This document shows, in pieces, positions 6,906 through 52,100 of a stretch of 64,000 nucleotides of DNA (positions within the stretch are counted from its first letter, which is position 1; each line of letters starts with the position of its first letter). A model generated the notes under the pieces. It was not told the origin of the DNA. It did no database searches and worked only from the letters and a program-made list of their open reading frames with translations. Location of the stretch: positions 64,668,001-64,732,000 of the forward strand of contig CM059432.1 of assembly GCA_030390025.1 (NCBI GenBank), written 5' to 3'. The stretch is from Squalus acanthias (lineage: Eukaryota). The translations under genes were made by a program, and so were the position numbers.

Positions 6906-7429
6906 CCCTTATCCCCTTATTTCTTATGTTATGTTCTTATGAGTGAGCAGGAGCATGTGGTGTTGGCAATGCAGGAGCAGGAACTGCTGTCCAGAGGGCC
7001 AGCTTATATTATACCTCATCTGCAGGGCTCTCGCATTCAGATCTCACAGATCTGCATATAAAAGAATGCTGTTCTCTGACAATGATCATTATCTGCAGTC
7101 ACTTGAGACTGCCCGAAGCAGCCTGCAAGCTCTGCATAATGTGTGGCTGTGCAGTCATAAAATATAGCTGAGCTAAATTACATTCCATCACAAAGTGCAT
7201 AGCAACACAAGGCTAACTGCAACCGAGCCGACAGTGACAGAGGTCCTTTACACAGTGGAGGTATCTCTTATGAATGCTTGCACTGCTGATGTGGACTTTA
7301 GTCTCTCATGTACAGGTGGCTCCCTTGTCTGGCTTTAACATGCTGGGGGAGGGGACTGAGTGAGCAATTTCACAGGGGTTCACAAATCTCACTGCTGCCC
7401 AGAGATTTTTTCCCACAGAGATCAGCCTC

Positions 7430-8695
7430 AGATGAGGACCAAGATGACCACCAGCAGCAGCAGGACCTGCACCAGCAACACCAGCAGCAGCAGGAGCATC
7501 AGGACCTGCACCAGCAACACCAGCAGCAGCAGGAGCACCAGGACCTGCACCAGCAACACCAGCAGCAGCAGGAGCATCAGGACCTGCACCAGCAACACCA
7601 GCAGCAGCAGGAGCATCAGGACCTGCACCAGCAACACCAGCAGCAGCAGGAGCAATTGGACCTGCACCAGCAACACCAGCAGCAGCAGGAGCATCAGGAC
7701 CTGCACCAGCAACACCAGCAGCAGCAGGAGCAATTGGACCTGCACCAGCAACACCAGCAGCAGCAGGAGCACCAGGACCTGCACCAGCAACACCAGCACC
7801 AGCAGGAGCACCAGGACCTGCACCAGCAACAGCCTGCTGCTCACAGACCTGCAGCTCCACAGGACAGAGAGAATCAGCAGAGAGGTGCAGCTCGCAGGAG
7901 GCCATACCCGGCACACAGTGTTGACAGGCAGAGGATAAGCTTCCTCAACATGTCTGAACACCAGTATTTGAGGAGGCTCAGGGTGTCGCGTCAGGTGGTG
8001 ACAGACATTTGCAGCCGGCGGGAAGAAGACCACCTGCCAACTGGACCTGGTTGCCACGCTTTACCAGTGACTGTCAAAGTCACCACCACCCTCAACCTTT
8101 TTGCCTCTAGATCCTTCCAGGGCTGTCAGAGAAATTTGCAGGATCTCGCAGTCGGCGGCACACAAATGTATAACACAGGTGACTAATTGCTTCTTTGCCA
8201 GGGCCGGTAATTATGTAAACTTCGCCTGCAATGACATCAGTCAGAATGAGCGGGTTAGTGGCTCTGGCTGGCTTCCCACAGGTGGAGGGCCTCATCGACT
8301 GCACACATGTAGCAATTAAGGCACCCATAGATCACCCAGGAGTGTTTGTCAACCGCAAGGGCTTCCACTCCATCAATGTGCAGCTGGTGTGCAACCACAA
8401 AAAAATCTTTATGCAGGTTTGTGCAAGATTTCCGGGCAACTGCCATGATCATGGTGTGCTGTGCTCTGCACAACATTGAACAGCAGCGAGGTTTCGACCT
8501 GCAGGAGGAACAAGTTGCAGAACACAGAGCCTCTTCGGATTATTCCGAGGAGGAGGAGGAAGGCGAGAAGGAAAATGAGGAGGAGGAGGGGGAGGGGAGG
8601 AAGAGGAGGAGGAGGGGGGAAGGTGATGTGGGCAATGCACCATCAGTGGCGCACATTGCTGCCCGGGATGCCCTCATTATTGCAAGGTTCACTTC
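7430..8695 (+). pseudogene. Harbinger transposase with Q/H-rich N-terminus and internal deletion
   Basis: [30 protein letters not shown] and [20 protein letters not shown] jump directly to VCCALHN (GDKGY and IE..FG segments missing near 8448). Acidic tail ends HIAARDALIIARF. Confidence 0.9.
7461..7832 (+). repeat. 39-bp minisatellite, 9 full units plus a partial unit (QDLHQQHQQQQEH)
   Basis: The unit CAGGACCTGCACCAGCAACACCAGCAGCAGCAGGAGCAY is directly visible, in frame with the transposase. Confidence 0.97.
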
Positions 8696-9029: not shown

Positions 9030-10824
9030 CTACAAATCTCTACTCTTCCCTTTCCAAGCACATCGACGTAGTGCAACTCCTATGGCTTCAGCAGAGGTAG
9101 AGGCAGGCTGCTCAGATCCCTGCTCTGGCTGCTGAGATGCTCTTGGCCGACGTTCTCTGAGTTTTGGAGCCCTTGAGGGCGCTGCCAAAGACTGCTCCAC
9201 CTGCACCTGTACAGGGGCAGACTCGGCCCTCGGGACATGAGGCACCATGGAGGTACTGACTGAGGGGGGCGTTTGGCAATGGATGAGAAGTAGAAGCGCT
9301 TTGAGCCAAGTCTCCACTCCCATGTCCCCTTTCACCATCATCTCTTTCATGGCCCACACGCACATCCCTGCTCGCAATGAGCTGGAGAACACTTTGCTGC
9401 AGATCAGTGGGGCAATGAACAGCCAAGGTTAGGGTATCATTCATCGTATTTAAGTTGGCATTCATAGTGTGCAAGCCATTGGTGAGGGTCTGAATGCACT
9501 CATGTGATTGCCGCGTTTGATGCTCCGTGCAGGTGGCCACCCTTTGCATGGACGAAGACATCATCGTAAAGGCCTGTGACATCATGCCACTCATGCTTGA
9601 GACGTACTCCTTCAATCTTGCTGCAAGCGTGCACAGTGCGGCTGGCACGCCTGCAACTACATCGCATATTCTCTGCTGCTGCTCCTGATGTTTCCTGTTC
9701 ATCAACAGCCCCCAAAGTACAGCATATGCGTCCAGCTGAGCACAGCTTGGAGCGTCCTGCGCTCTCCGACACGGACTCTCCACTGTTGTCCGTCTCCACC
9801 ATCTGCTCTGGTTCACTTGTGATGTGTGAGTCACCAGGTGAACACCCAACTATCTGCCTTACTGTCCCACCGAAGTGTGAGTATCTGAGCTGGTGCATGG
9901 TAAGCATGAGTCCTGTGACCTCCTCTGAGAAGTCCTTGTCATAGTCCTCGACCTGCACCACCTCCTGTGAGACGCGTGAAGGCCCTGTGGGAGATAAAAT
10001 ACATGAATGAGTACTGTCAAGGTAAGAATGTTTGAAGATATCATTATGCATATGATCATATTTCACTCGTTCTTGACATAAAGTCAACATGAGTAAGTGT
10101 TGTATGCCATGTGGCAATCGGATATTTAATTGCGTCACCAGGTAGCTGGGAGGCCCCCATCTCCAACAACCAGGCATGGTGAGACTCCACTGATTTCAAG
10201 CGCTTGATCCTCTGGATTTGTTAGCTGTGAGATGGCTGGAGGACCACTTCCGCTTCCCTGCCTCTCCCTTGTGTTCTGTGCTCTCTTCTCCTGCAAGGAG
10301 GGTAATAAGAGACCTATGAGTGAGAGTAATGGCATGTGTGGGACAGATGGATGGAGAGCATTTGTTGAAGGTGACTATGAGGGAGAGGCATAATATTGCA
10401 TAAGGATGAGGATGAGTATCAGTGGTGGATGGACAGATGGGGATGTGAGGAAGTGCATAGATAGAGAGGGATGGGTGTACCTGCAAGGTAAGTTGGTGTG
10501 AGGAGTGATGTGCTGGTGTAGGTTTGAGAAGACAGAGTGAAGGGGTTGTGGTGTTTTGCACATCAGGATGTAGGTGAATGCACCATTGCTCTCACCTTTC
10601 CTGCTCTGTTTAGGTCATTGAATTGCTTCCTGCATTGTATCCAGGAGTGTGGCACCACACTCCTGCTGCTGACCTCTTGTGCTACCTCCAACCACGCCTT
10701 CTTGGTCTCCCCAGCCGGCTTCTTCCTCCCGTTGCTATGCCTCCGGGTCCGCACACATCCCCAGCAACACATCCAGGGAGACATCGCTGAAACGAGGTGC
10801 AGCCTTTGACCTACTGGATACCAT
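9030..10824 (-). pseudogene. Harbinger Myb/SANT-like DNA-binding protein gene, 3 exons, frameshifted
   Basis: Exon 1 about 10824-10596 (APRFSDVSLDVLL / AWLEVAQEVSSRS..SWIQCRKQFNDL, AAG|GTGAGA donor). Exon 2 from 10290 (TTGCAG|EKRAQN). Exon 3 from about 9983. Confidence 0.85.
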
Positions 10825-11226
10825 TCTGGCACTTCCTTCTCTTTGGCTCCCAACTCCAAACTCCTTCAATTTGCATGTTTGTAGTGTCCCTTTAAATATT
10901 GAAGTTGAAATCGCATCATGTGGGTCGTCATTATGCCCGCTGATGCTAATTGGTGGGGAAAGCCGGAAATCATACAGTAATGCAGAGGCTGGGTTAAAAA
11001 GCCACTGACAAACGCGCTGCACGAACTTCCGGGTTTCCTGCACGCTATTGAACTCCCCATTCCCAGCGCGTTGCAAACTTAAAATCCAGCCCATTGAATC
11101 TGTGTTCATCTGGTGTTCCTGGCTAGCATACAGGTGTTAAGATCCGAGGTTGAACGGAGTAACTTTGTCTCCTAGACTCTGTTCTTCCAGTTTGGTTTCT
11201 CCTTTAAATAACTCTGGAACATAGGA

Positions 11227-12160
11227 TTACTTTAAAAGAATCAGGACTGCTACCTGGGAAGTAAGCCTCACCTGTACGATCTTGCGTGTCTGATCACTAA
11301 TCAGCTGGCAGTTAATGGAATTCAACTCCCTGTAGTTCTTGAAGAAATGATGGTGAAATTGGTCTCTTGAGATAGCTTGGAAGGAGCTGGAGTTATAGAA
11401 GCTCATTGGGTTGGTAATTTTCACTGCCATTGGCAAGGCTGCCATTGCTGTTAGCATCTGAGGTCAAATTCCAGCAGTTACATACACCCTGGCAAAACAT
11501 AACCTGTGGAGGCAATTTTTCTCAAATATTTTCACAGGTGTATCTGGGTATGTACATATGGTAGAGCAAAATGAGTGATAGTGAATCGGCAGTCCGTTTT
11601 ACACTCCACCCGGTTTTCTTTTCCATTGCTATTTTGCTCTGCCACCCACGACCAATTTCACCCCCATTGTGTGTAGGTACCCAGATGGTCAGATGGGTGA
11701 AATCAATAATGAGTTGAATTTTGGGGAATCCTGTAATGTGGAAAACTTTGAGTGTCCTTTCAATCTGCTGCTAGTTTTCCATGGGGATAGTAATTGAAGG
11801 TATTTGCCTTGCATATAACACATCGGGGATCTGTTTGATGCCTTTGTGAACTGTGGATTGACTGATGTTGCTAATGTCTCCTGAGATAACTTGGAAGGAG
11901 CTGGAGTCATAGAAGCTCATTGGGTTGGTAATTTTCACTGTCACTGGCAAGGCTGTCATTGCTGTTAACATCTGAGGTCGAATTCCAGCAGATACATACA
12001 CCCTGACAAAACTTAGCCTGCGGAGGCAATTTTCCTCAAATATCTGGGTTTGTACGTATGAATGTTTGGGTAATAGCACATATAGGCAGTCTGCCACTGA
12101 TGTAAGCACACCTGCCTTGTATCTCTGCTTTCATCCTCGTCTTCTGCCTCCAAGAAATTC
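11227..12160 (-). pseudogene. Old Harbinger transposase fragments, partly duplicated
   Basis: CLRRLSF, ALPV.VKIT..MSFY.SSSFQ (present twice), ISQSTVHK and NSINCQLISD motifs. Confidence 0.75.
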
Positions 12161-17312: not shown

Positions 17313-17570
17313 TTAAGCATACTGCTTAAGCCTCTTCAGAATGAGGCAGAGGTTTTGATGGAAGAGTCTGTCGTTGCTGAGATCTATGACTGGAAAGTTA
17401 AATAGGAACTTGCGGATTTTAATCGAGGTTCCATTGGGAGGCCAGCGTAGAAAGTGGAGCAGTACTGGAACCAGAGGTTTCTTCAGAGATTCAGCAAGGT
17501 GCACGTCTTTGTGATAGTTGTCAGACTGGATGTACCTTGGAGTTAAACAGCTTACAACTGCATGTGCTGC
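17313..17570 (-). CDS. Terminal coding exon of a host gene: C-terminal half of a TIR_2-like domain
   Basis: Acceptor TCTTCTTGCAG| then 85 uninterrupted codons to TAA: AAHAVVSCLTPRYIQSDNYHKDVHLAESLKKPLVPVLLHFLRWPPNG..PVIDLS. This fits the TIR betaC-alphaC-betaD-(WPP)-betaE pattern. Flanks are non-repetitive and AT-rich. Possible AATAAA on the minus strand at 16812-16817. Confidence 0.75.
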   Translation of the reverse strand, partial: AAHAVVSCLTPRYIQSDNYHKDVHLAESLKKPLVPVLLHFLRWPPNGTSIKIRKFLFNFPVIDLSNDRLFHQNLCLILKRLKQYA

Positions 17571-18211
17571 CTGCAAGAAGATTTAACATAAAGGAATGTG
17601 TTAAGTAATGATCTGAGAAATATTAGAACAACCAAAATTGACAAATAGGCTGATTTTGTACTTGAATATCTATCTACTTCAGTAAATTCCTCTGTTGTGT
17701 CCATGCACGTGCAGGTGGTCTGCCTCTATTATTTAAATGGCCATCTCTCCATGATTTGGGATGGGCTAAAAGCCCTTGGTTATAGGTGAACAGGAGTTCC
17801 ACTCCAACCACACTTCTAGTGGCAGAGTAGGGACCCTGGAATTTTTTTTAAAATGCATTTCCAATTTTGGTTCATAGTTTATATTGAAGGAGCTTGTGCC
17901 TCCTTCAGCTTTTGTCTGCTGTGAAAATAGTTGATGCTTTCCTGGCTTTGCCACTAGGTAAAGTGCCATGTTTACTCCATGAGGGGCTTTCACTAATGGG
18001 AGGAAGAGTAGTAAAATATTTTAGGGTACAAACTGTACAATATTGTTAGCCTCTTATTTTTAGCTTTTATAGCCCTGAATTTCCACAGGAGTTGTCGCGA
18101 TGAAGTTAAAGCAGGATCAGGACATACCACGCGGGAATTTGGGGCCTATATCTTAAATGTGCAAAAGCACAGCCACCTCCAGTCCTGCTGAATGAATTGT
18201 AAAAAAACATT

Positions 18212-25576: not shown

Positions 25577-27950
25577 TATTGCCGGGAGTTAACATACTGC
25601 CTTGAAGTTGCAGACATTGTCCCACCATGAATTGGTCCTCCTCATCCAGTTTCTGCAGCAAAAGGGATTCCTATCCTCCCAAATTCATTAGGAGCAAATG
25701 TTTCACTGCACCAAATGCCCAGATTTCAGGTAAGTTTTTCCAAAAAAAATGAAGGCTTTTTAAAAAAGAAATAAAGGCAAGGAAATAAAACATATGCAAA
25801 ATGCTCATGTAATAAAAACTGGACTGCTACATTCAGTAAAACATCAGCAACCTTGCTTTAGCAAATCATCCAAAGCAAGCCAGGCCTGCCTAGCAGTAAC
25901 GTGCCCAGTTTATATGGGTGAGATGCATGCTGGGGACAGTTCCTTGTCTGAAAACAGGCTATTCAGCATGGAACCTAATTTTAATCATTATTCAATGTTA
26001 ACGAGACTCATACATGCCTGTAGTGCAGCTTCATTTTCTCTTCCTAAATTGCTGCAAATCAAACATCCAATTTTACGACAGTAGAGCCTTGCAAAATTAC
26101 CATTATGGTATAAACAGAATGTATTCAGTGCAAAAATCCTTTTGCATCACATGAATTATGCAATAGAGCATATATATTTAAAAATTCTGTGGGATATCAT
26201 TTTTATTGCATAAATGGTCTGAACTCTACTCGTATTGGTGCGATATTAATCATGTTCCACAAGCCTTCATAATGTTTCCTCTACTTATACTTTAACATTA
26301 GTGGAGTCTTGCATTGAGTGTACTAAAACCTAATAAAAATGGTGAGCAGACCTGGCAAAATGAGACAAAAATTCAATTTACCAAAACTAGAAACAATTAA
26401 TTTCTCCAAAGGGAGAAGAGCTTTCCTTTTGAATGTTGTAAAGGAAAGAGGCAATAACTCTTTCATTTATCTTTGATATCTCCGGACACAACAGACCACT
26501 TAAAGCAGAGGTGCTTGAATCCGAATAGTCACTACATTATATATTTCATTTTAACATGCAAAATGCTTGGCCCTTAAAGACCGTAATATAAGGGTGGGAT
26601 ATATTTCCACTACATCCCATTTATTCTATTTTTAGCAATTCTGAACTGACTATATTTGTGAATAAGCTGAAAGCTTATTTTGCATTACAATTGATTCTAA
26701 ATGTTCTGGTAAGAATAGCATTTTGAATATTGTGGATATTATTTTCACATTTTTATGCATAGAAATTTCCTGGCATTATTTGGAAAAAGAAATGGGAGTG
26801 AGGGGAGTGATGTCAAACAGACCTCCAAAGATGAATGACCTACATGCAGTTTTTGACACTGGCAGGTTGACTCACACTGACTATTTTACAGAATAGTAAG
26901 TCTGTGCCGAATGCCCTTTCAGCTCACTCAGAAATATAATCGGACTGAAGTTGTTTTTAAAAATTATTTTAAGAACTGCAGCTGCCTCCTGCCGGTGTGA
27001 GTCACTCGAGAGACTGACTGACAGAAAAAATATTGAAGGGTTTTTTCTTGAAGGGCTTTTAGGGCCTTTTTGAAATCAAAGAAGTCTAGAAATTACAGCA
27101 CAGAGTGTGACCAGTCAGTCCATCACACTTGTACTGTACCAGGTCTTCATCTGGAGCCTTCTACTCTAATCTCATTTCCCTGCCTTCCCTGGCATAGACT
27201 TTCAACTTCACCACTTGGGTGTTAAACTGGCGGAATGGATCACCTGCCTGTTATAGAAACTGCCCGATTTCTCAGTCAGTTTCTATATTAGGTGAGTGAC
27301 CTGCTCCCCTGTTTACAACCAAGGCGGTGAAGGTGAAAATTACTTCCTCATATCCTTTCATATTTTAACTTTTCAAATATTTAATTCCATTTTATTTTAA
27401 ATTATATAACAATTTTTGCCTCAAAAGCTATCGGTGGTAAAGGTTCCTTGTTCCAACAGCTCTCTGTGTGAAAACATTTCGCCTACCTTCGCCCTTCATT
27501 CGTTTAATGATAATTCTGAGTCTCTTCCTCCTTGTTACTATTGAACAACCAGTGAAGACAATCTTTCAGTGTTTACTGTTGAATATTTTAACAACTAGCA
27601 AATGCAGGTTCTGTGGTCTTGTGTCTATGGGTTATAAATGAACTGACTGTTTTTATGTGTGATTATAGAAACTGCAGCACAAAAGGAGGTCATTCAGTGC
27701 ATTGTGCCCGTGTCAGTGCTAGCTCCACATTAGAGCTACGAGCTGTAGTCTGATTCAACAACAACAACTTATATTTATATAGCGCCTTTAATGTAATAAA
27801 ACGTCTCAAGGCGCTTCACAGGAGTGCTACCAAAAAATAAATTGACACCGAGCCACATAAGAAGATGTGGAGATGCCGGTGTTGGACTGGGGTGGACAAA
27901 TGTGAGAAGTCGCACAACACCAGGTTATAGTCCAACAGCTTTATTTGAAA

Positions 27951-27987
27951 TCACAAGCTTTCGGAGCGCTGCTCCTTCGTCAGGTGA
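27951..27987 (-). ncRNA. Minimal type I hammerhead ribozyme motif (identical copy on the opposite strand)
   Basis: Exact reverse complement of 28057-28093. Confidence 0.75.
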
Positions 27988-28056
27988 AGTGAAGAGATGC
28001 ATATAGGCACAGCATATATAGTCAGAGAACACTGCCAGATGATTACAGTTAATCTT

Positions 28057-28093
28057 TCACCTGACGAAGGAGCAGCGCTCCGAAAGCTTGTGA
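28057..28093 (+). ncRNA. Minimal type I hammerhead ribozyme motif
   Basis: TCAC-CTGACGA-A-GGAGC(AGC)GCTCC-GAAA-GCTT-GTGA: stem I TCAC/GTGA, CUGANGA and GAAA core boxes, stem II, and a palindromic AAGCTT stem III. Confidence 0.75.
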
Positions 28094-29126
28094 TTTCAAA
28101 TAAAGCTGTTGGACTATAACCTGGTGTTGTGCGACTTCTCACATAAGAAGATGTTAGGGCAGATGACCAAAAGCTTGGTCGAAGAGGTAGGTTTTAAGGA
28201 GCGTCTTAAAGGAGGAAAGAGAAGTAGAGAGGTGGAGACATTTAGGGAGGGAATTCCAGAGCTTAGGACCTAGACAGCTGAAGGCACGACCGCCAATGGT
28301 GGAGCATTTAAAATCGAGGATGTTCAAGAGATCTAGGGGGATTGTAGGGCTGGAGGAGATTACAGAGATAAGTAGGGGCGAGGCATTGGAGGGATTTGAA
28401 AACAAGGATAAGAATTTAAAAATCGAGATGTTGCTTAACTGGGAGCCAATGTAGGTCAGCAAGCACAGGGGAGATGGGTGAGCTGGACTTGGTGCGAGTT
28501 AGCACACAGGCAGCAGAGTTTTGGATGACCTCAAGTTTATGGAGGGTAGAACTAGGGAGGCCGGCCAGGCATGCGTTGGAATAGTCAAGTCTAGAGGTGA
28601 TAAAGGCATGGATGAGGGTTTCAGCAGCAGATAAGTTGAGGTAAGGGCAGAGATGGACAGTCATAGTAATAGAACGGGTATGAGGTAGGAAAGTAAATTC
28701 GTGATCAAATATGACACCAAGGTTGCGAACAGACTTGGTCAGCCTTAGATAGTTGCCGGGGAGAGAGATCGAATCACTGGAAAAGGAATGGAGTGAACCA
28801 AAGACAATGGAAATTCCTGCTCTTTCTCCACAAATTAAATATTTTTCTTCTTTCAAGTGTTTATCCAACGTCCTCTTTAATGCCATGATTGACTCAGCTA
28901 CAATTGTCACTTGTAGTAGTGCATTCCATATTCTAATAACCTTTTGTATGAAAAAAATCTTTTAACTCACCATTTATGCATCTAGTACTAATCCTAAATG
29001 TATGCCTCCTTGTTCTTGATTCACCAAACAGTCGAAATAACCTTTCACTATTCTCCCTCTAAAACCATTGCAAAATTTCTATGACGCACACCCTGAAATT
29101 TCTCTGCTCTAGTGAATACAGACCAT

Positions 29127-29882: not shown

Positions 29883-31342
29883 GGGGGCGATTTTCTGACG
29901 CTGGAGGAGGCGGGTTTGGAGTTGGGAAAGGCGGGAAAATTCGAATTACTGAGGTCGGGTCAGAAACCCGACTCCAACCCGTCTCCGTGGGATTTCGCCG
30001 GTGCCGGTTTTGGCGGTTGGGAAACGATCCTGCCTCCAGCTGGCCATAGCGTTAATTAACTACTGCAAATGCTTGTTAAGGGTCTCTCGAATCCTATTTT
30101 GAGAGGCCCTCTTGAATTTACCATCATTTCGGCGTGCTTCACGCAATTTCTGAACCACACCAGGTAAACCTGGCGGGTTGACTTGTGGGTGGCCTCCTCA
30201 CTGCTGCAGGTCTAACAAGACCTCGTTCACTGCAGCAAGGCTTACTTGCAGGTGCCAGACCTTGGCTTTAAAAGGTCTCTGAGCACTTTTAGAAGGCCTT
30301 CCGAAGTCAGAGGTGCTACAGCTTGACTCCATCAACTGTGGGACCTCCTGGGAAGAACCTCGCCCCGCTTACAGTGAGCGCTTCCCCAGAGGAGGCATCT
30401 GCAAGCAGAATGGAAAACATTCATTTCCTTTCACCTTGGACCTCAGATGAGGATGAGGAGGAGGAGGAGGAGGAGGCTGAGGAGGAGGAGGATGATCTGG
30501 AGGAGGAGGAGCAGCAGGAGGAGCTGGAGGAGGTCAAAGTGTCGGTGTTTCAACCAGCAGCAGTGGCAGCACGCGAGCACATGGCTGCCAGGGATGCAAG
30601 GGATTAACTTATCATGGCCAGATTTGTATAGGTTGGCCAAGTTGGCACATGTCCTTGGCTCCATGCCAGAACTTCATTGACAATGGACTTGACTCTCTGG
30701 CCTCCTTTCAGTCAGGCCACCAACCTGACAACGCAAGTGTGGCGTTGCCCGCAATGTGGAGCTGCCTAAGGCTAAGTAACAGATGGCATAACGCCAACAT
30801 TTTGGCATCAAATCATGTTAATGCTTTCCAACAAGGATGGCATTTCATCAATACACAGAAACAGTCTCCCAATCTACACACAGATCTGGAGGTTATATCC
30901 CTTACCAGCTGTACCCACACAGCCTTGGTTTCTTTGGCAGGCCTCTTCCTCCGAGATGAGTGGAAGAGTACCTCCATGCTAGTTCTCACCCCCTCAAACA
31001 ACATTTGCTGCGCCTCATCTGAGAGCCTTGGGTAGGTCCTTGCCATGGAATTGGACATAGTGGTTTCTCAAAAAATGTTGGAGGTGGTGCAGGAGATGCA
31101 GAAATGCTGTGGAATGAGCCAAGGGAGCAAGTAGCCATAAAATCAGACTGGAAAAGTGCTGTCAACAGAGGCGAGTTTCAGTCCCAAAACACTAATTGCG
31201 CAATGCATCCCACACCTCTGAAATCAAGTGGACAATCATGGGAAATTCTCACTTTTTTGAAAACTATCAGTGGAGGCGAGTTTCTGACACACCCAAACCG
31301 AAACCCGCCTCCATCTCACCTCCAGTGAGAAAATCGCCCCCC
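29883..31342. mobile_element. Internally deleted Harbinger (mini-transposase on +, Myb exon-1 relic on -)
   Basis: TIRs GGGGGCGATTTTCT / AGAAAATCGCCCCC. ORF 30813-31058 (-) PRLSDEAQQMLFEGV...KAVWVQLV is Myb/SANT-like. The + strand reads SPWTSDEDEEE...HMAARDARD*LIMARF. Confidence 0.85.
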
Positions 31343-36355: not shown

Positions 36356-37195
36356 TGGGGGCTGCACAGATTCGGGGCGTCGTCCTGCACCTGCAGAATC
36401 GGAGGCATCAGAGACGCAGAGAGAGAGAGTGGCAAACATGGCCAGGAGGAGGAGGGCCAGTACATCTCTTTCCCCATGACCTGGGCCAAATAGCATGAAC
36501 GCGCATGTGGCTTTGCTAGGATAGTGGGCTTCCCCATGGTGCAGGGCGCCATTGACTGCACACATGTGGCATTGCGGGCACCGCATGAAAATGCAGAGGT
36601 ATTCTGAAACCGCAAGGGCTACCACTCCTTAAATGTGCAGTTGGTCTGTGACCACAGACAGCTCATACTCGCCGTCAATGCCCGTTATACTTGCAGCAGC
36701 CACGATGCTTTCACCCTGCGCCAGACTGGTGTGCCAGACCTTTTCCAGGCACCGCATCACCCAAGTGGATGGCTCCTCAGGGACAAGGGTTATCCACTCT
36801 GCACCTGGCTGATGACACCATTCCGTAACCCCAACACCGCTGCTGAGCTGCGGTACAATGAGAGCCATCTCGCCACCAGGAACATAATTGAGCAGACGAT
36901 CGGCGTGCTCAAGCAACGGTTCCGCTGTCTGGACCACTCAGGAGGAGCCCTGCAGTACTCTCCTGAGCGAGTCTCCCTCTTCATAGTTGTGTGCTGCATG
37001 CTTCACAACCTGGCAATCCTGAGGACCCAGCCAATGCCACCAGGGATTGGTGCACCACCTGAGGAGGAGGAGGAGGAGGAAGAGGAGGAGGAGGATGAGG
37101 AGGAGGATCAGCAGCAGCACCAACGTGGGAGGGAGGCGCACAATGTTGCCACTGCAAGGGCCGTTTGTCAACGGCTAATAACAAGCCGCTTCTAG
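36356..37195 (+). pseudogene. Harbinger transposase (N-terminal deletion near 36459, in-frame stops)
   Basis: [45 protein letters not shown], acidic tail and LITSRF*. Confidence 0.93.
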
Positions 37196-37507
37196 GCCCC
37201 TACTCAGAAGATGGCTTCTGGCATGGAGATCAACATCATGGAAAGCAACCCGCACCCCCTATTGCTGGCCAAAGCTGGAATGATTCCAAAGGCTAAAAAT
37301 GTAAATTTTGAATACAACAACTTTTTTCTTTAACAAACTCTGTGTGTGTCATTTATTCAGGACAAACAATTAGAAACAAACACAACAAATCATGAATTAA
37401 CAGAACTGGTTCTCACAAGCTGGAGATAAACAGCAAAACAGTAAACAAATGTAATCACACGAACCTTGACCTTTACTACAAACATTCCCACCATTTACTT
37501 AGACCTC

Positions 37508-39263
37508 CTACTGTTTGCCCTTCGAGGGTAATCTCCATCCCCAGCGCACTTCACCCCTTCCCACCCTACTGCTCCTCCGTAATGAGGCCCCAGTGGCTGC
37601 AGCAAGGCTGGTGGAAGGATGCTGAATGTCAGATGCAGAGACTACAGATGCCCTTGAAGGATGCCCTTGACCAGCTCTGGGCCTGGAGGCCCCAGCTGCA
37701 GACTGCACCAACTCTGCATGGGCGGCAGCAGTCTGGGCTGGCTGTGTTGCAGGCGGTGGCAAGTGCAATGGGGAAGTGACAGTGGTGGGAGCAGGAATGC
37801 TGTCATCCTGAGAGTGGACAGCACCTCCCTGCTCGACCGACACACTGGCACTCCCACGGGGCTGAACCTCAGCATCCGGAGCAATCTGCTTGAGCACAGA
37901 TTGCTGTCCTGCTGCGGCACCGTGAGAGCCCCGGGACAATGTGGCCGACCCAGCAACGATGGCAGCAGTTAGTGCATGCGTGACATCAATCTGAGACTGC
38001 ATGAGAGCAGTCTGAGATTGGATCGCAGCAGCCAGTGACTGAATTGCAGCAATAAGCCATTGCGTTGCGTCGGCCTGTGCTGCAGCGGAGTGCTCCACAC
38101 TCCTTGCCAGTCCATCAATTCTTTCGGGCACCCTTGCCATTGCAACCATGAGCTCAGTGTGCATGCTCAAGGCCTGGCTATTCATTTCTGCGATGACGCA
38201 CTCCTCCTCTGCTTCCAGTGCAGCAGGACTCGTTGGCCTACTCACCCTCCGGGGAGATGGCCCCCGAGCTTCCCTACCCCCATGGTGTTGCTGCAGCCCG
38301 CTGGGTCCCGGAGCTTCGTCCTCATCAGACCCTACCCCCTGCTCCCCTCCAGGGAAGGCGTGGTCCCAGTGTGGGCTCCCTCAGGAGACGCAGGCGCTGA
38401 GGCTCCAGCTTCCTCTTCCTCCTCACCTGGGGCGTCGCTGCCACTGGTTGGTTGAGGGACAGGCTGGTCAGCTGGTGGCTCACTATCTGAAAGCAGGGAG
38501 GTACAAGAGTGGCTTTAGCGTCAGGACAGGGGACAGTAAGGGAGCAAGGGAGACATTTAGTAAGTTGGATTGAAAGTGTAAAAGGCTGGTGTTGTGAGGG
38601 GCAAGTGGAATGAGAGAGGAGAGAAAGCTGATGAACTTACCATTGCTGTCCCCAAGGGGGTCGACCTCTCCAGCAGCCACGGCAACAATCACCTGGCTGG
38701 CAATAATCCTGTGCACGCGTGCCTCCAAATCGCTGAGGGTCTGCAGCTCAGCCGGTCCTCCACCCGTGCATTGCTGCTCCCGCCTGTTATGAGAGAGCTT
38801 GGCCTGCAAGAAAAAGGACAGCGTCTGAGTGAATGTGCAGCCATGTGCTTGCTTGATGTGCCTCCCATAGTTGAATAGCCCTTAATGTATGCAAGGTGTG
38901 GAATGTGCGTGTGTGTTCTATGAGATGGCCATAGGTCTCTGATGAGTATTGGGCATTTGGGGTTTTTAAACCCTCTGGGCACAGAGTGAAGTTGAGATGT
39001 AGAGGTATTGAAAAGCAGCCACTCACCCTGACCACCCGAGTGAGGTCGTTGAACTTCTTCCGACATTGGGTGTGGGTCCTGGGCACCATGCTCATGGAGG
39101 AGATGTGCTGAGCCACCTCCCTCCAGACTCTTCTGGATTCGCGTGGCAATGGCCTCCTGCCACTCTGTGGGTAGAGTACTGCCCTTCGCCGCTCCACAGC
39201 ACCAAACAGAGCCACCAAGGCCCGGTCGCTGAAGCGCTGAGCTCTTTTCCTGGGCCTCTCCAT
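37508..39263 (-). pseudogene. Harbinger Myb/SANT-like protein gene, 3 exons (39263-39027, 38803-38641, 38486-37508)
   Basis: RFSDRALVALF..WREVAQ..RTHTQCRKKFNDL. Canonical GT-AG sites. Exon sizes 237 and 163 nt match the 44.5-kb copy. 1-bp frameshift near 38335. Confidence 0.92.
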
Positions 39264-39774
39264 TGTTGTTTCCAGCAGAATTGATGTACAGGTCTCTCCA
39301 GGCCAAGATTCAAGGCTGCAATGAGTGTGGCTGGAGAGCAAGATTGACCCTCCCCTTTAAGAACTGGCCAGCGCCAGTCTGTCTGTGTTCCATAGCTAAC
39401 TGACATCACCTGAGCTTCGCCAGCGCTCCGAGGTAACGCCTCGCTCCTCGGTGTTAGCGCCTTCAGAGAGGTGTGTAGTGCCTGATTTAGCGCTCAAATC
39501 ACCTCCAGGAGCGATAGAGGCCAAGTTTGCAGTCGGAGGCGATAATTAGCGCCAGGCGCTAAACTTTGCGACTGGCCGATAATTGCACCCCAAACGGGGC
39601 GATACCGAATTTCTCCCCCATTAAGTCGCAACACAAAAGGAGATTGAATCCTCTGTAATTTGGGCTCTGAAATTACACTGAATAAATTGGTTAAAATCTG
39701 TGAAAACAGTAGACAAAGGAATTACAGTTTGTACATTAATATTCACACAAGTGTAATATCAAGGCCCCTATATT

Positions 39775-43240: not shown

Positions 43241-44504
43241 ATTAAGTTATTTAAATACTGATAGTAAAATAAATTGCACCTGATTTTCAAGTTTAGGTAT
43301 ATGGAGAAGTGTAAATTCAGAACAGCTTTACAAGGTTCAGCTGATATCATAAAGTATGACAGAGCAAAATAATCTATTTCTCTTGATCTTAAAAGTGCAT
43401 TCCACCCTAAAGAATACACAGATATTTCCTGTCTTATTTTTTTTATTGCTCGGTGAATTCTTGTGATGAATGTCAGCGGTGCAGGTGGAAGATCCTGTCA
43501 CAGTCTGAACCCTTCATTATCAAATTGTTTCAGGTCAAGTACAGCAAGTATCAACAGTTAAACTATTCTGCCCCAGCAATTAATCCCAACCTCAGAAGTA
43601 ATAATTACTGCACCAGCACAATATTTTCTATTTCCCACAGCAGCCACTGTAACAGTCAGCTTGAATGAGTTTGCCATATTTAGTGCTAATTTGTTCCAGA
43701 TTGAGTAGTTTTGTGATGTGATCTCATGCTTATTGTAACTGGGCTGAGACAGGAGAGGTGATCAGGAGCAGGCTCTCGGGCAGATGTTTCCCTGTGTCCT
43801 GTCCAGAAATACTGAGGTAAACTACAGCATCTTTTCACCTCAGTCAAATTCTTTGAGCCTATTGTGCACTCAGCAATCACTGGGGTCAGTTTCCTCAGAG
43901 ATTGCCCTTATTTCACTTGCTACGGCTTCATTCTATTGTTTTGTCACCAAACAAATACAAATGGTTTGGCTTTACATTATAACAGTGACTACACTTCAAA
44001 ATTACAAAGCACTTTTGGACATCCTAAGGTCGTGAAAAGCGCTTTATAAATACAAGTCTTTCTTTTCTTTAATGCCGTTGGGTTAGAGTTTCGTCTTGTG
44101 TTCAAGAGATTATGGGCGCAAAATTCGGGGGGGACGCTAACTTTTAGGGGTAGAAATTAGGTCGCGCCCCATTTGGGGCGCAAATATCGTCTGGACGCAA
44201 ATATTAGCGCCTGGCGCTAATTATCGGCACTGACAGGAAACTTCACTTTTACCGCCCCGGGAGGTGAGTGGAGCGCTAAAGCAGGCGCTGCACACCTGTC
44301 TTAAGGCGCAAAGGCCAAGGAGTGAGGCGCTAACTCAGCGCGCGAGCGCAGCGCAGCTGCTGCCAGTTAGCAAGGGAACACAGACACACTGGCGCCGGAC
44401 ACTTCTTAAAGCGGGGGGGGCCACTTGCTCACCAGCCACACCCTGCTCATTGCAGCCTTGAATCTCAGCCTGGAGAGACCTGTGAATCCATTTTGCTGCC
44501 AAGC

Positions 44505-46323
44505 ATGGAGAGGGTGAGAGAACGCGCTCATCGCTTCAGCGAGCGGGCCTTGGATGCTCTGGTTGGCGCAGTGGAGCGCAGACGATGTATGCTCTTCCCT
44601 GAGAGTGGCAGAAGGCCTTTGCCACGCGAGTTCAGAAGAGTGTGGAGGGAGGTGGCTCAGAGCGTCTCCTCCAGGAGCATGGTGCCCAGGACCCATACTC
44701 AATGCCGCAAAAAGTTCAACGACCTCACTCGGGTCGTCAGGGTGAGTGGCTTTTTCTCAATACCTCTCCATCCCTCCATCTCAACCTCACTCTATGGCCA
44801 GAGGGTCTTAAAACCCCAATGCACAACACTCATCCAACACCTATGGCCCTTTCATCAAACACACACACACATTCCACACTTTGCATACAGTAAGGGCTAT
44901 TCACCTATGGGAGGCACATCAGGCAAGACCATGGCTGCATATTGTAAGGGCTATTCACCTATGGGAGGCACATCAGGCAAGACCATGGCTGCATATTTAC
45001 TCAGATGCTGTCCTTTTTCTTGCAGGCTAAGCTGGATCATAATAGGAGACAGCAGCAACGGACAGGTGGAGGGCGGCTTCAGCTGCAACCCCTCAGCGAT
45101 CTGGAGGAGCGCGTCCACAGGATTGTGGCAAGCCGGGTGATCGGTCCCGTCGCCACTGGAGACGCCGACCCCGTTGTGGACAGCAATGGTAAGGTCATCA
45201 CCTTTTTGTCCTCTGTCCTTCCACTTGTCCCTCACAACACCAGCCTTTGACACTTTCAATCCAACTTGCTAACTCGCTGCACTTATTCCTCCCTTACTGC
45301 CACCCTGTCCTCACGCTAAAGCCACTCTTGTACCTCCCTGCTTTCAGATAGTGATTCACCAGCTGAGGAGACGGGCCCTGAAGCTGCCACTGGGAGTGAT
45401 GCTGCAGCTGAGGAGGAAGAGGAAGCCAGAGCATCAGTGCCACCCTCTCCCGAGGAAGCCCATGCCCACACTGGGAACACGCCTTCCCCGGAGGGGAGCA
45501 GGGGGGAAGGGGCTGATGATGGTGAAGCTCCAGGACCCAGCGGTCTGCAGCAACGCCATGGGGGGGGGGGTAGGGAAGAACGGGGGCCTTCTCCCCAGAG
45601 GGAGAGTATGCCAGACACTCCTACTGCAATGGACGCAGAGGAGGAGCGGCTGATTGCAGAAATGAACACCCAGGCATGCACACTGAGCTCATGGGTGCAG
45701 TGGGAAGGGTGCCCGAATGCATTGAGTCACTGGCAAGGAGTGTGGAGCACTTCGCTGTAGCACAGACGGATGCCACACTAACGCTTAGTGCTGCAATTCA
45801 GTCACTGGCTGCCGTGATCCCACCTCTGACTGCTCTCATACAGACTCAGATGGAGGCCACGCGAGCACAGACTGCTGCCAACCTCGATGGTTCATGCACA
45901 TGTCCCCGGGGCTGTCACCGCGCCGCAGCAGGCCAGCAATCTGTTCTCCGGCAGATTGCTCCGGATGCTGAAGTGCTGCCCCGTGGGAGTGCCAGTGTGT
46001 CGGGCGAGCAGGGAGTTGCTGTCCTCTCTCACGATGACAGCATTCCTGCTGCCAACACTGTCACTTCTCCACTGCACTTGCCACCGCCTGTAGGACAGAC
46101 TGCTGCCGCCCATGCAGAGTTGGTGCAGTCTGCAGCCGGGCCCTCCAGGCCCAGAAGTGGTCGAGGCCGTCCTTCAGGGGCATCTGCAGTGTCAGGGTCT
46201 GACGAGCAGCAGCCTTCCACCAGCCTTGCTGCAGCCACTGAGGTCCCATTACGGAGGAGCAGTAGGGTTAGAAGGGGGGAAGTGCGCAAGGGAAGGAGAT
46301 CACCCTCGAAGGGCAAAAAGTAG
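44505..46323 (+). pseudogene. Harbinger Myb/SANT-like protein gene, 3 exons (44505-44741, 45026-45188, 45348-46323)
   Basis: MERVRERAHRFSERALDALV..WREVAQ..QCRKKFNDL with canonical splice sites. Single 7-bp deletion near 45676 relative to the 49.9-kb copy (CAGGCA[GTGGACA]TGCAC). Confidence 0.93.
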
Positions 46324-46602
46324 GAGGTGTGACAAAATGCTGGTCATTTTTTTATTAAAGGCCGAGGTTCATGGTCCAACTTTTGTTTAGTGTTTTGGAC
46401 ATTATCTCCAGGTTGTGAGAACCAGTTATGTTATTGACTGTTTTTTTGTGTTTATTTCTATGAGTTTGTCATGAGGAATTGACACACACAGAGTTTGTAA
46501 AATAAATAAGTTTCTGTATTCAAAATATACATGGCTGGTGGTTGGAATTATTGGTGCCTTGGCCGGCTGGGTTGATTAGTGTTTGTAGCAATGGCAGGGG
46601 CC

Positions 46603-47764
46603 CTAGAAGCGGCTTGCTATTAGTCGTTGACGGACGGCCCTTGCAGTTTGACCATTGTGGGCCGCCCTCCCGCCTTGGTGCTGCTGATGATCATCGTCCT
46701 CGTCCTCTTCCTCCTCTTCCTCCTCCTCCTCTGGTGGTGCTACAAGGCCTGGTGGCATTGGCTGGGTCCTGAGGATTGCCATGTTGTGCAACATGCAGCA
46801 CACGACTACGAAGTTCGAAACTTGCTCAGGCGAGTACTGCAGGGCTCCTCCGGAATGGTCCAGACAGCGGAACCGTTGTTTCAGCACGCCGATTGTGCGC
46901 TCAATAATGTTCCTGGTTGCTTGATGGCTTTCATTGTACCGCAGCTCAGCAGGGGTGTTTGGCGTACGGAGCGGTGTCATCAGCCAGGTGCTCAATGCGT
47001 ACCCCTTGTCCCCCAGAAGCCAACCAACTGGCTGATGCGGTGCCTCGAAAACTTCTGCCACAGTAGTCTGGCGCAGGATGAAAGCATCGTGGCAGCTGCC
47101 CGGATAGTGGGCATTGACAGCGAGTATCACCTGTCTGTGGTCACAGACCAACTGCACATTCAAGGAATGGAACCCCTTTCTGTTCCTGAATTCCTCTGCA
47201 TTCTCTCGCGGAGCACGCAAAGCCCAGAGGGGTGCAGTCAATGGCGCCCTGCACCATGGGGAAGCCCGCTACCCTCGCAAAGCCCAGAGCACGGTCACGC
47301 TGCTTGTCTGGGGTCATAGGGAAAGAGATGAAGTCTCGTCTCCTTCTGAAGAGGGCATTGGTGACCTGCCGGATGCAGCGATGCACTGCAAACTGGGAGA
47401 TATTGGCGAGGTCCCCAACAGCAGCTTGGAATGAGCCAGTGGCGTAGAAGTTCAAAGCCACTGTGACCTTCACTGCCACCGACAGAGACATCCTGGACCT
47501 CAGTTGAGGCTGCAGATCTGGCTGCAGCAGGTGGCAGAGCTCAGTGACCACCTCCTTGCTGAATCGCAGCCTTCGCAAACACAGCTCCTCGGACATATGG
47601 ATGTAGGAGAGCTGTTCACGATATACCCTGGGAGGGTAAGCTCTCCTGTACATGCGCCTGATAGCCCTCCTCCGTCTGGCCATCATTGCCACTCTCTGTC
47701 TGCGTCTCTGTATCCTCCGATTCAGCTGGAGCAGGACGACGCCCCCAATCAGTGCAGCCCCCAT
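46603..47764 (-). pseudogene. Harbinger DDE transposase, full length with one frameshift near 47225
   Basis: ORFs 47141-47833 and 46603-47241 together give [64 protein letters not shown] and CCMLHN. Confidence 0.95.
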
Positions 47765-49161
47765 ATTCTCTTTGCCAGAAAAGTAATGAGGTACAGCAAC
47801 TAAAGTAGCAACAAAGTTAGGATGAATAGGCAAAACTACCTCACAAAGCGTTGAGTCAATGTAGAAGTCTCTCTCTCTCTCTCTCCGAATCTCTCTCTCT
47901 CTCTCAGAACGAGTGGTGCATAAATGTCAACCACAGAAAAAGACAGGAAGAGGCCCCCTTTAAATAGCGCCCCCCCCAAGCCCCACACCGATTGATAGCG
48001 TTCCAGTCTTCCGGTCGTTGGAAGCGCCAGGCGGTAAGGCAGGGGGCGCCACTCAATTTCCGCTCCGGGGCGCCCCAAGGGCGTTGCACCATGGAATGAC
48101 GTCATAATCTGCGCGCGCAGGTGGTCGCAGCGGTAAGTTTTAGCGCCGCCGCACAATCTCAAGTTAAGTTCTCGAGCGGCGCAAACATCGCTGCGCCCGG
48201 GCGTTAGCGGCTTAACGCCCCATTAGCGCCCTCTTAAGGCGCTAATGGGAGGCGCAACCAACTGAATTTTTACCCCTTAACTTTTTGAAAAGTTAGCGCC
48301 CGGCGAAATCCAATGAAAAATTTTGCAAAATTGGGCGTTTTTGCCCCAGGAGTGAAGTGGGGCGGTAAATGAGGTGATAATGGTCTCAGTGGAGTGCTGC
48401 AGGGGCGCTATTGCCAGAGCGCTACCCAATTTTAGCTGACTTGCGTTCAGCAATCAGTCTTCAAGCCTTGACTCGAGCTTATTCCAGCTCTTAAAGGGGA
48501 GGTCATTTCAAGCTGCAGCTGCTCATTATCAGCATTGCTGCACTTGAGTGCGACCTCTCAGCTACTGAGACAGCTTTGTGCTATGGCTGCTGCAAGGGAG
48601 AGGGAGAGGGCTACTCGATTCAACGATGTGGAACTGGATATGTTCAGCAGCTTGTCTGACAATGCCTCAGCAGATTTATGGCCGACAAAAAAGTTTCCCC
48701 AAGATGGCGCCTTTAAATAGCGCGAGCGAAGCCGACTCCCGACTGCAACTCGACAGCAGCGCCAGGCGGTAAGTGAAGAAGCGTGGCCGAATTTTACATC
48801 CAGGGCACTAACAGGGCACTGTGCACGGCGATGACATCATCATCACCGGGCGCGGCCAAGCGGGGTGGTACCTACAGGAGCAGGGCGTCAACTCTTAGCT
48901 CCTCTGCAAAAACCCAGCCCAATTTAGCGCAGGGTGCTAATATTGCTGTGCCCGGGCAAAAATGCATTTGCGCTCTGTTAGCGCCCCATGGAGGTGCTAA
49001 CGACAGGTGCAAAGCAGCTGAATTTTGCGCCCCAAAACTCTGAATCTGAATCAGCATATTAACTTAATTAAATCAAAATTAGGGTGTTCATCCTCATAAA
49101 TTACTTCCAACTGGATAGAGAGCATTATGTGCTGTACTTTTTCACAGAATTATCTTGCCCA

Positions 49162-52100
49162 ACAGTAAGGGCTAATCACCTATGGGAGGCACATCAGGCA
49201 AGACCATGGCTGTATATTTACTCAGACGCCGTCCTTTTTCTTGCAGGCCAAGCTATCTCATAATAGGAGACAGCAGCAACGGACGGGTGGAGGGCGGCCT
49301 CAGCTGCAACCCCTCAGCGATTTTGAGGCGCTCGTCCACAGGATTGTGGCAAGCCGGGTGATCAGTCCCGTTGCCACTGGAGACGCCGACCCCGTTCTGG
49401 ACAGCAATGGTAAGGTCATCACCTTTTTGTCCTCTGTCCTTCCACTTGTCCCTCACAACACCAGCCTTTGACACTTTCAATCCAACTTACTAAATCGCTG
49501 CACTCATTCCTCCCTTACTGCCCCCCTGTCCTCACGCTAAAGCCACTCTTGAACCTCCCTGCTTTCAGATGGTGATTCACCAGCTGAGGAGACGGGCCCT
49601 CAAGCTGCCAGTGGGAGTGAAGCTGCAGGCGAGGAGGAAGATGAAGGCGGAGCATCAGCGCCACCCTCTCTTGAGGAAGCCCATGCCCACACTGGGAACA
49701 CGCCTTCCCTGAAGGGGAGCATGAAGGGTCTGATGAGGGTGAAGCTCCAGGACCCAGCGGGCTGCAGCAAAGCGATGGGGGTAGGGAAGCTCGGGGGCCT
49801 TCTCACCGGAGGAAGAGTATGCCAGCGAGTCCTGCTGCACTGGTCGCAGAGGAGGAGCGGCTCAGCGCTGAAATGAACACCCAGGCAGTGGACATGCACA
49901 CTCAGCTCATGGGTGCAGTGGGAAGGGTGCCCGAATGCATTCAATCACTGGCAAGGAGTGTGGAGCACTTCGCTGTAGCACAGGCGGATGCCACGCAAAT
50001 GTTTAGTGCTGCAATTCAGTCACTGGCTGTCATGACCCCATCTCTGACTGCTCTCATGCAGACTCAGATTGAGGCCACGCAAGCCCTGACTGCTGCCATC
50101 CTCGCTGGTTCGGACACATTTCCCCGGGGCTCTCACCGCGCCGCAGCAGGCCAGCAATCTGTGCTCCAGCAGATTGCTCCGGATGCTGAAGTGCTGCCCC
50201 GTGGGAGTGCCAGTGTGTCGGTCGAGCAGGGAGTTGCTGTCCTCTCTCAAGATGACAGCATTCCTGCTGCCACCACTGTCACTTCCCCATTGCACTTCCC
50301 ACCACCTGTAGCCCAGACTGCTGCCGCCCATGCAGAGTTGGTGCAGTCTGCAGCCAGGCCCTCCAGGCCCAGAGCTGGTCGAGGCCGTCCTTCAAGGGCA
50401 TCTGCAGTCTCAGGTTCTGACAATCAGCAGCCTTCCACCAGCCTTGCTGCAGCCACTGGGGTCCCATTACGGAGGAGCAGTAGGGTGGGAAGGGGGGACG
50501 TGCGAAAGGGAAGGAGATCACCCTCGAAGGGCAAAAAGTAGGAGGTGTGACAAAATGTTGGTCATTTTTTTATTAAAGGCCGAGGTTCGTGGTCAAACTT
50601 TTGTTTAGTGTTTTGGACATTATCTCCAGGTTGTGAGAACCAGTTATGTTAATGACTTTTTTTTTGTGTTTCTTTCTATTAGTTTGTCATCAGGAAATGA
50701 CACACACAGAGTTTGTAAAATAAATAAGTTTTTGTATTCAAAATGTACATGTTTGGTCTTTGGAATCATTGCTGCCTTGGCCGGCTTAGGGGTTGCGGGT
50801 TGGTTTCATTAATGTTGTTCTCAATGGCAGAAGCCATTTCCTCAGCAGGGGCCTAGAAGCGGCTTGCTATCAGCCGTTGACGGACGGCCCTTCCAGTTAC
50901 TACATTGTGGGCCTCCCTCCCGCCTTGGTGCTGCTGATGATCATCCTCCTCCTCTTCCTCTGGTGGTGCTCCAAGGCCTGGTGGCATTGGCTGGGTCCTG
51001 AGGATTGCCACGAAGTGGGAAACTCGCTCAGGCGAGTACTACAGGGCTCCTCCAGAATGGTCCAGACAGCGGAACCGTTGCTTGAGCACGCCGAGTGTGT
51101 GCTCAACGATGTTCCTGGTAGCTTGATGGCTCTTGTTGTACCGCAGCTCAGCAGGGGTGTTGGGCGTACGGAGCGGTGTCATCAGCCAGGTGCTCAGTGG
51201 ATATCCCTTGTCCCCGAGAAGCCAACCAACTGGCTGATGCGGTGCCTGGAAAAGTTCTGCCACAGTAGTCTGGCGCAGGATGAATGCAGCTGCCAGGATA
51301 GTGGGCATTGACAGCGAGTATCAGCTGTCTGTGGTCACAGACCAATTGAATGTTTAAGGAATGGAACCCCTTTCTGTTGCGGAAATCCTCGGCATTCTCA
51401 TGCGGAGCACGCAAAGCCACATGCGTGCAGTCAATGGCGCCCTGCACCATGGGGAAGCCCGCTATCCTAGCAAAGCCCATTGCGCGTTCTTGCTGCTTGT
51501 CTGGGGTCATGGGGAAAGAGATGTAATCTCATCTCCTTTTAAAGAGGGCATTTGTGACCTGACGGATGCAGCAATGCACCGCGAACTGGGAGATATTGGC
51601 GATGTCCCCAGTAGCTGATTGTAATGAGCCAGTGGCATAAAAGTTCAGAGCCACTGTGATCTTCACTGCCACCGACAGAGACGTCCTGGACCTCAGTTGA
51701 GGCTGCAGATCTGGCTGCAGCAGGTGGCAGCGCTCAGTGACTACCTCCTTGCTGAAGCGCATCCTTCGCAAACACTGCTCCTCAGACATATTAATATATG
51801 TGAATTGTTGGCGATATACCCTGGGAGGTATATCGCCCACAGTCCAAAAATGTGTGGGTTAGGTTGATTTGGCTATGATAAATTGACCCTTAGTGTTAGG
51901 GGGGGATTAAATATGTGGGGTTATGGGGATAGGATGGGATATGTTAGGGGGAATTAAATACGTGGGGTTACGGGGGTAGGGTGGGATATGTGTACTGTGG
52001 GGATTAAAGCAGGGACAGGGTACTGGATTTGGATGATCAGCCATGATCGTATTGAATGGTGGAGCAGGCTCGACGGGCCGAATGGCCTACTCCTGCTCCT

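Follow-up and report, generated by a model that had tools for sequence, protein, structure and literature searches.

How did two hammerhead ribozyme motifs come to lie head-to-head in a perfect inverted repeat inside an old LINE of Squalus acanthias, and does the structure that carries them work as an RNA? The locus is part of the 64,000 nucleotides that were analysed here (the window), and had been read from its letters as a young, self-standing, non-coding element made of two arms around a spacer. We find a different organisation, a 5'-truncated end piece joined to an inverted copy of lesser length; only one end has a tail, and the centres differ among the other copies of the family. The insert is in our view a young, two-piece, head-to-head remnant, likely produced at a single insertion when the reverse transcriptase (RT) of the element extended the two strands of a staggered cut; to this reading we give a probability of about 0.75.

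Architecture of the insert and its target

The insert is flanked by an exact 15-bp direct repeat, and its inverted arms are complementary at 89 of 89 positions with 67 nt between them (Table 1), all of which the original prediction had described correctly. The longest inverted match was 89 nt in the real 3-kb region, compared with a maximum of 20 nt in 100 base shuffles. The size first given, 276 bp, needs correction, as 271 bp lie between the duplicated copies and the larger figure includes 5 nt common to the right arm and the duplication; the final 5 nt of the element likewise fall within the left copy of the duplication. The direct repeat is a true target-site duplication, at an internal chromosomal site, and where the target had one 15-mer there are now two. 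Uninterrupted L2 copies in three other read sets have the left flank running directly into a single 15-mer, 7 of the 15 joints listed skip the entire insert, and the 15-mer is also single in an L2 paralog at about 32.1 kb of the window. Both duplication copies at the locus have A where both window L2 paralogs have G.

Table 1. Positions of the insert, its parts and its surroundings in the window
Feature	Position	Strand	Remarks
Last coding exon of the TIR-domain gene	17314..17572	-	With splice acceptor and stop
3' fragment of an older, presumably L2-type LINE, host of the insert	27756..28960	-	Outer bounds approximate
Target-site duplication, left copy	27854..27868	+	14-15 bp, shared bases blur the edges; quasi-palindromic ACAT-N6-ATGT
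Longer sense piece of the end repeat (pLTR)	27864..28055	-	192 nt, 5'-truncated at 28055; promoter-like part, hammerhead, AATAAA and tail
One-sided AC-rich tail	27864..27899	-	36 nt, 25/36 A or C; last 5 nt within the duplication
Left arm	27900..27988	-	89 nt, belongs to the longer piece
AATAAA	27940..27945	-	Followed by a GU-rich stretch (27921-27913); putative poly(A) site
Minimal type I hammerhead motif, copy 1	27951..27987	-	From descriptor scan; predicted cut between 27955 and 27954, mirrors 28089/28090
TATA-like box (28020-28014) and initiator-like TCACT (27992-27988)	27988..28020	-	Predicted transcription start
67-nt "spacer"	27989..28055	-	End-repeat sequence (upstream part) rather than unrelated filler
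Inverted tail-less copy	28056..28144	+	89 nt; last 5 nt within the duplication
Minimal type I hammerhead motif, copy 2	28057..28093	+	Predicted cut after 28089
Target-site duplication, right copy	28140..28154	+	Exact direct repeat

The insert is asymmetric. Its left arm extends a further 31 nt (36 with the 5 nt common to the duplication) that have no counterpart on the right, and the whole can be described as a 192-nt minus-strand piece, comprising centre, arm and 36-nt AC-rich tail, set head-to-head with an 89-nt tail-less copy. The region between the arms is deeply covered in read sets X3, X6 and X8, and one X3 copy matches 27925-28055 before it diverges; because that copy runs through arm and spacer, the spacer belongs to the element and continues directly from the left arm. 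Within it the TATA-like box stands at -30 relative to the A (27990) of the initiator-like TCACT, and the 5' end of the short arm mirrors 27988, 2 nt after this predicted start site. Other copies remain alignable up to and including 27864, where the tail ends, and differ from the locus beyond it (516 records in X8, 3 reads in X21). The X8 consensus beside 27864 has an ATG in the frame that ends there, and P0005, a conceptual translation from an independent relative, carries the same frame past 27864 with Met-Ala, so that a start codon likely lies right after the tail. The stability of the tail stem-loop was not above that of shuffles (z -1.3).

The surrounding LINE, which we take to be L2-type from its sequence pattern, is 73-81% identical to its two window paralogs, and Pfam returned no family for the single flank ORF tested. 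The TIR exon encodes a protein segment 82% identical to a Scyliorhinus torazame protein, a similarity indicative of a cartilaginous fish. Nothing in the window credibly matched residues 1-89 of that protein; of the 163 minus-strand frames in repeat-poor regions, 150 were scanned with Pfam for host exons. The suggestion that the insert lies in an intron of this minus-strand gene is likely to be correct if the gene is intact, in which case it occupies the last intron (>46 kb), 10 kb from the exon, and the upstream exons fall outside the window.

A probable Penelope-like end repeat

The source repeat is most likely an endonuclease-type Penelope-like retroelement (PLE), and there is little doubt that the insert is a PLE remnant. 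It has an end repeat with a hammerhead and an adjoining inverted, 5'-truncated copy, a 36-nt one-sided tail and a duplication, and this layout and the hammerhead motif match published PLE descriptions, in keeping with the origin first proposed. No ORF is left within the 271 bp, and protein and DNA searches of sequence collections found no RT or GIY-YIG gene tied to the repeat. A protein search with the 64-codon minus frame (its stop read as X) gave first nothing and then two matches, P0004, which was discarded as an unrelated repeat-rich protein, and P0005, which is 53% identical and has no Pfam match; searches starting from P0005 yielded nothing further. The single match among metagenome contigs was bacterial and due to chance, genome contigs gave none and then 120 short-word matches with no true relative among them, viral contigs gave none and then seven, again with no true relative, and BLAST of the 192-nt piece against 128 loci aligned 27 nt at best. 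Self-BLAST detected no second family copy within the window.

Other copies and age

Four read sets show the family at very high abundance in organisms A, B and C, with a few diverged reads in organism I. In X3 and X6, contig depth sums to about 1e6 across the insert and to 12-40 in the unique flank, figures that are not a copy number. At least 10 distinct antisense-to-sense junctions are present in other copies, 8 among the 15 joints and 2 among the 12 further rows listed, these 27 being the best supported of about 3,000 joint rows from contigs, in which joints within palindromes can be artefacts. All 10 listed junctions are unlike that of the present insert and unlike one another. Because the junctions vary in this way, the mirror copy is likely to be built anew at each insertion, and we are confident, if slightly less so than of the PLE origin itself, that at this locus it was made at insertion. 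In 8 of the 10 listed junctions one 5' end falls where stem I begins, at the position corresponding to 28056-28061, a pile-up to be read as a lead since the rows were selected by support and the shape of the reference may bias it.

That the insertion is young, as had been supposed, is supported by two observations. The arms, identical at 89/89 positions, set a 95% upper bound of 3.3% on their divergence, and among the 40 of 177 rows that were listed the insert differs from the X3 majority at none of 3 positions, compared with 32 of 32 for the host L2. The family as a whole is heterogeneous, with only 6,816 of 83,958 X3 records at least 99% alike.

Hammerhead motif and predicted folding

The hammerhead core, a 4-bp stem I, a 5-bp stem II, GAAA-GC-UU and AATAAA are found in both arms at the places originally described, the predicted cut after 28089 agrees with standard hammerhead numbering, and the self-complementary AGCU supports the assignment to minimal hammerheads with a palindromic helix III. 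The motif matches the minimal hammerhead (min-HHR) consensus of Cervera and De la Pena (2014; PMC4209133, Fig. S3) at every position, including the CUGANGAH ... GAAAN-palindrome-NUH core, the G10.1-C11.1 pair and the extra base before stem II. The Rfam hammerhead models, by which the prediction was to have been checked, gave no match at E<=10 on either the 3 kb or 71 nt, and the ribozyme call rests instead on this published consensus. Occurrences of the loose pattern CTGANGA..GAAA in the window (9, with 5.9 expected) show no enrichment, and a stem-aware scan gave five candidates, among which only the two arms have all four stem I pairs and a 5-bp stem II. Across copies, in the 40 of 177 rows listed, stems I and II show loop-II insertions at 27967 and no stem substitution.

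Folded in isolation, the motif has both stems in its minimum-energy structure (-11.6 kcal/mol, z -1.7, equalled by 13 of 200 shuffles). Whichever strand is read through, the antisense arm emerges first, and the pairing probability of stem II is 0.0 at all six read-through prefixes tested and at full length. The idea that a long hairpin would compete with the ribozyme fold thus understated the calculated effect: read-through RNA is predicted to bury the hammerhead in the 89-bp duplex, and on the TIR-gene strand the predicted hairpin amounts to -187 kcal/mol. An RNA starting at 27990 is predicted to fold stems I and II with a probability of 0.6-0.8. CUU is a weak hammerhead cleavage triplet. Published min-HHR monomers did not cleave and dimers cleaved at a low level, and the ribozyme of PAc (Poseidon of Anolis carolinensis; Frangieh et al. 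2024, PMC11167929) required its own protein. For these reasons, and with stem II predicted to be buried, self-cleavage at the insert is unlikely, save perhaps in RNA starting at 27990, itself a monomer. An X3 junction from 27988 to 28090 begins at the predicted cut, but has a 4-nt ambiguity and was not accepted as a cleavage trace. A microRNA precursor was likewise rejected, as the match to MIR821 (102 bits, gathering score 249) reflects only the perfect hairpin.

How the insert may have formed

We propose the following course, the steps of which are drawn from this one locus. The GIY-YIG enzyme, as PAc biochemistry suggests, would nick both strands 14-15 nt apart at the near-palindromic ACAT-N6-ATGT, and in the element RNA an ACAU would pair with each target 3' end (..ATGT). 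These two ACAU sites, at the far and the near end of the tail, would give two internal start sites, which would account for a tail on one side only. The short cDNA would end by run-off from the 5' end of the RNA, immediately beyond hammerhead stem I, its longer partner would extend 67 nt further on a read-through RNA or on a 3' copy of the repeat, and the two would finally be joined blunt, 5' to 5'. In the host pre-mRNA the arms are predicted to form the 89-bp duplex with the ribozyme unfolded, which would leave the locus inert except as a possible substrate for dsRNA editing.

The ends of the insert bear on this proposal. The 192-nt piece contains CACAT at two places only, one at each 3' end, and a 5-nt match links each 3' end of the target to one end of the element. 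Four of these 5 nt are the shared ACAT; the fifth matching base on the tail-less side (27904) varies between organisms. Against the proposal, the window has two further ACAT-N6-ATGT sites and neither is occupied. PAc cleaves and extends both strands, with reverse transcription beginning at two internal positions that delimit the tail, but its priming is reported to be non-homologous to the cut DNA, which counts against paired priming (PMC11167929).

A more detailed version divides the end repeat into U3 (TATA), R (start site, hammerhead and poly(A) site) and U5 (the two priming sites), with both nicked strands primed by 4-5-nt ATGT/ACAU pairing and the short arm a "strong-stop" cDNA off capped RNA, its run-off 2 nt before hammerhead stem I. 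The start of the short arm 2 nt after an initiator with TATA at -30 fits such a run-off at the RNA 5' end. The TATA/initiator reading does not hold for every element, the internal promoter of D. virilis Penelope being TATA-less, and we offer this version tentatively, as one that is possible but rather doubtful. If true, strong-stop synthesis with paired priming would need no ribozyme cut and would account together for the tail at one end, the inversions in head-to-head orientation, the accumulation of 5' ends at the edge of the ribozyme and the sequence hot spots. Among the titles and abstract openings searched, which took in few subscription papers, we found no publication of a strong-stop, twin-priming or microhomology model for Penelope.

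Priming on two strands is the course towards which we lean, if only slightly, over a fold-back, which would equally leave a PLE remnant and which we regard as a serious contender. Here a single strand would be primed, and the 3' end of a 187-192-nt cDNA would prime itself and copy 89 nt until its ..CACAT annealed to the other overhang. The arms are perfectly identical, and perfect arms in a heterogeneous family fit one cDNA copied on itself as well as they fit two primings; centres that vary between copies are also as a fold-back would have them, and it is to self-priming that Arkhipova et al. (2013, PMC3846280) attribute inverted junctions. The turn, however, lacks any pairing, the bases before 28056 and after 27988 being complementary at one G-U at most. 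Nor would a fold-back be expected to start the short arm 2 nt from the predicted RNA start, or to place one 5' end at the stem I start in 8 of the 10 listed junctions, and PAc extends both strands in vitro (PMC11167929).

A fixed non-autonomous hairpin, MITE-like or retrozyme-like and mobile as a whole unit, would have long perfect inverted arms, no coding capacity and a duplication on both sides, as this insert does, but we consider it improbable: the left arm is not terminal, having a 31-36-nt tail beyond it, the centre is continuous element sequence, and 10 of the 10 listed junctions in other copies differ. The one-sided tail and the differing junctions likewise dismiss a MITE or other TIR DNA transposon, while retrozymes are head-to-tail tandems and the copies here are inverted, which dismisses a tandem non-LTR retrozyme. 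It is slightly less probable again that the host has recruited the insert as an RNA device in the TIR-gene intron, whether as an edited hairpin, a source of small RNA, a premature poly(A) site or a switchable ribozyme. The -187 kcal/mol hairpin predicted on the gene strand, the AATAAA and GU-rich stretch in gene sense and the folding of stems I and II predicted for RNA from 27990 speak for such a role; on the other side the insert is young and one member of a very large family, contigs covering the flank in X3 and X6 reach only as far as 27783, short of it, published monomers did not cleave and dimers did so poorly, and Rfam miRNA matches are far under their thresholds. Library or assembly errors can yield perfect palindromes, and no read-set record bridges the insert, yet an assembly artefact, or a palindrome from later DNA repair, is extremely improbable given a clean duplication with a private L2 variant in both copies, a one-sided tail of published length and similar structures at other loci.

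Comparison with known systems

The inverted truncated copy, the one-sided tail, the duplication, the TATA/TCACT arrangement and opposite-strand hammerhead pairs are each already published for PLEs, and the insert is one clean example of a described and very abundant kind of insertion, the locus itself being of little weight. It illustrates that a hammerhead motif inside a perfect inverted repeat need not mean a working RNA device. Opposite-strand hammerhead pairs 100-700 bp apart are reported in metazoan PLEs, as is a truncated element with a second, opposite-strand motif at its 5' end (PMC4209133). The motif shares with the min-HHRs of that paper the CUGANGAH core, the extra base before G10.1, the G10.1-C11.1 pair, a short helix I, a loopless palindromic helix III and an AU-rich 3' flank; the same G-C-U-U follows GAAA in the turtle and Philodina rows of its Fig. 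S3, and UCAC/GUGA recurs as stem I in the lamprey row. It differs from them in its 5-bp stem II, and here the motif is known from sequence. The searched text of the supplement named no cartilaginous fish (shark, Callorhinchus).

Insertions of endonuclease-bearing (EN+) PLEs resemble the insert in having an inverted 5'-truncated copy beside the 5' end, a 30-40-bp tail at one end, a duplication and a TATA about 20 bp before TCACT (PMC3846280; Craig et al. 2021, PMC8557442; Schostak et al. 2008, PMC2377424), and rotifer pLTRs have the same TATA/TCACT arrangement (PMC3846280). The duplication is longer than in the rotifer examples (14-15 bp here, 8-10 bp there), and, unlike in published PLE insertions with inverted pLTRs, the insert lacks an ORF, and its junction shows neither palindrome nor overlap; the promoter of D. 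virilis Penelope, as noted, is unlike the predicted TATA/initiator. The non-LTR retrozymes of Li, Clavereau and Pollet (2026, bioRxiv 10.64898/2026.07.22.740005), found in the one cartilaginous fish sampled there, are similarly non-coding, derived from pLTRs and equipped with a type I hammerhead, but they are arranged head-to-tail, so that dimer cleavage is possible, whereas the head-to-head insert has one sense ribozyme and its antisense.

The value of the insert is as a test case for how PLEs form inverted copies and tails, a question raised in PMC8557442 and PMC11167929, and its ends give predictions that can be counted in other copies, namely that transcription starts at 27990, that both nicks pair through ACAT and that the target is symmetric. 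PAc provides a biochemical comparison (PMC11167929). The PAc ORF starts inside the hammerhead, whereas here the likely start codon follows the tail and an in-frame stop lies at the hammerhead, and in contrast to the non-homologous priming of PAc both ends here match the target for 4-5 nt. Like the present repeat, however, PAc has its hammerhead upstream of two AC-rich 3' ends that bound the tail, and extension of both strands in the manner of PAc would produce the layout of the present insert.

Other features of the window

Features of the window beyond the main insert are listed in the Table. By eye, the three related repeats contain frames resembling genes for Harbinger transposase and Myb/SANT, and the tandem repeat, in which several frames stay open, one of them Gln/His-rich, sits where one of the Harbinger-like fragments begins. 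The final intron of the TIR-domain gene is likely longer than 46 kb. A second hammerhead-like end-repeat stub, unrelated to the main insert and not inverted, carries the motif CTGATGA...GGTC/GACC...GAAA with extra bases in its core; a flanking duplication longer than 6 nt was looked for and none was found. We take this stub to be Penelope-like by resemblance.

Table. Additional features of the window
Feature	Window position	Strand	Details
Direct duplication	707-810 / 857-960		104 bp, 89%
Direct duplication	11362-11529 / 11876-12043		168 bp, 92%
Related Harbinger-like repeats	36460-39620, 44150-47640, 49160-51830	one inverted	2.4-3.2 kb, 79-88% alike
Harbinger-like fragments	near 0.1-1.3, 7.8-9.0, 54.5-55.7 kb
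Myb matches	10566-10865, 30816-31067		weak
Tandem repeat	7360-7940
Last exon, uncharacterised TIR-domain gene	17314-17572	-	weak Pfam TIR_2; 82% to catshark protein
Hammerhead-like stub	53864-about 54000	+

Tail, junction and promoter-like sequences of the insert family

P0005, a relative from the protein searches, comes from a metagenome contig of 1,067 bp. This 80-aa 'protein' is an end repeat related to that of the main insert, conceptually translated; the contig is therefore likely animal DNA and the gene call likely spurious.

In the main insert the tail pairs with the sequence right behind AATAAA in an 8-bp stem (27864-27945, minus strand), which cannot form in the tail-less arm and which showed no excess stability relative to shuffles. 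At another copy, in the read set X3 from a different organism, one inverted junction joins 27988 to 28090 and so restarts at the predicted ribozyme cut site, its position being ambiguous by 4 nt that correspond to stem I sequence.

The TATA-like box is readable on the plus strand too (28015-28050); about 30 nt past it, immediately ahead of the inverted arm, lies a weak initiator-like word. Read on both strands, this sequence may be a two-way promoter, as has been suggested for rotifer pLTRs, the end repeats of Penelope-like elements (PMC3846280).
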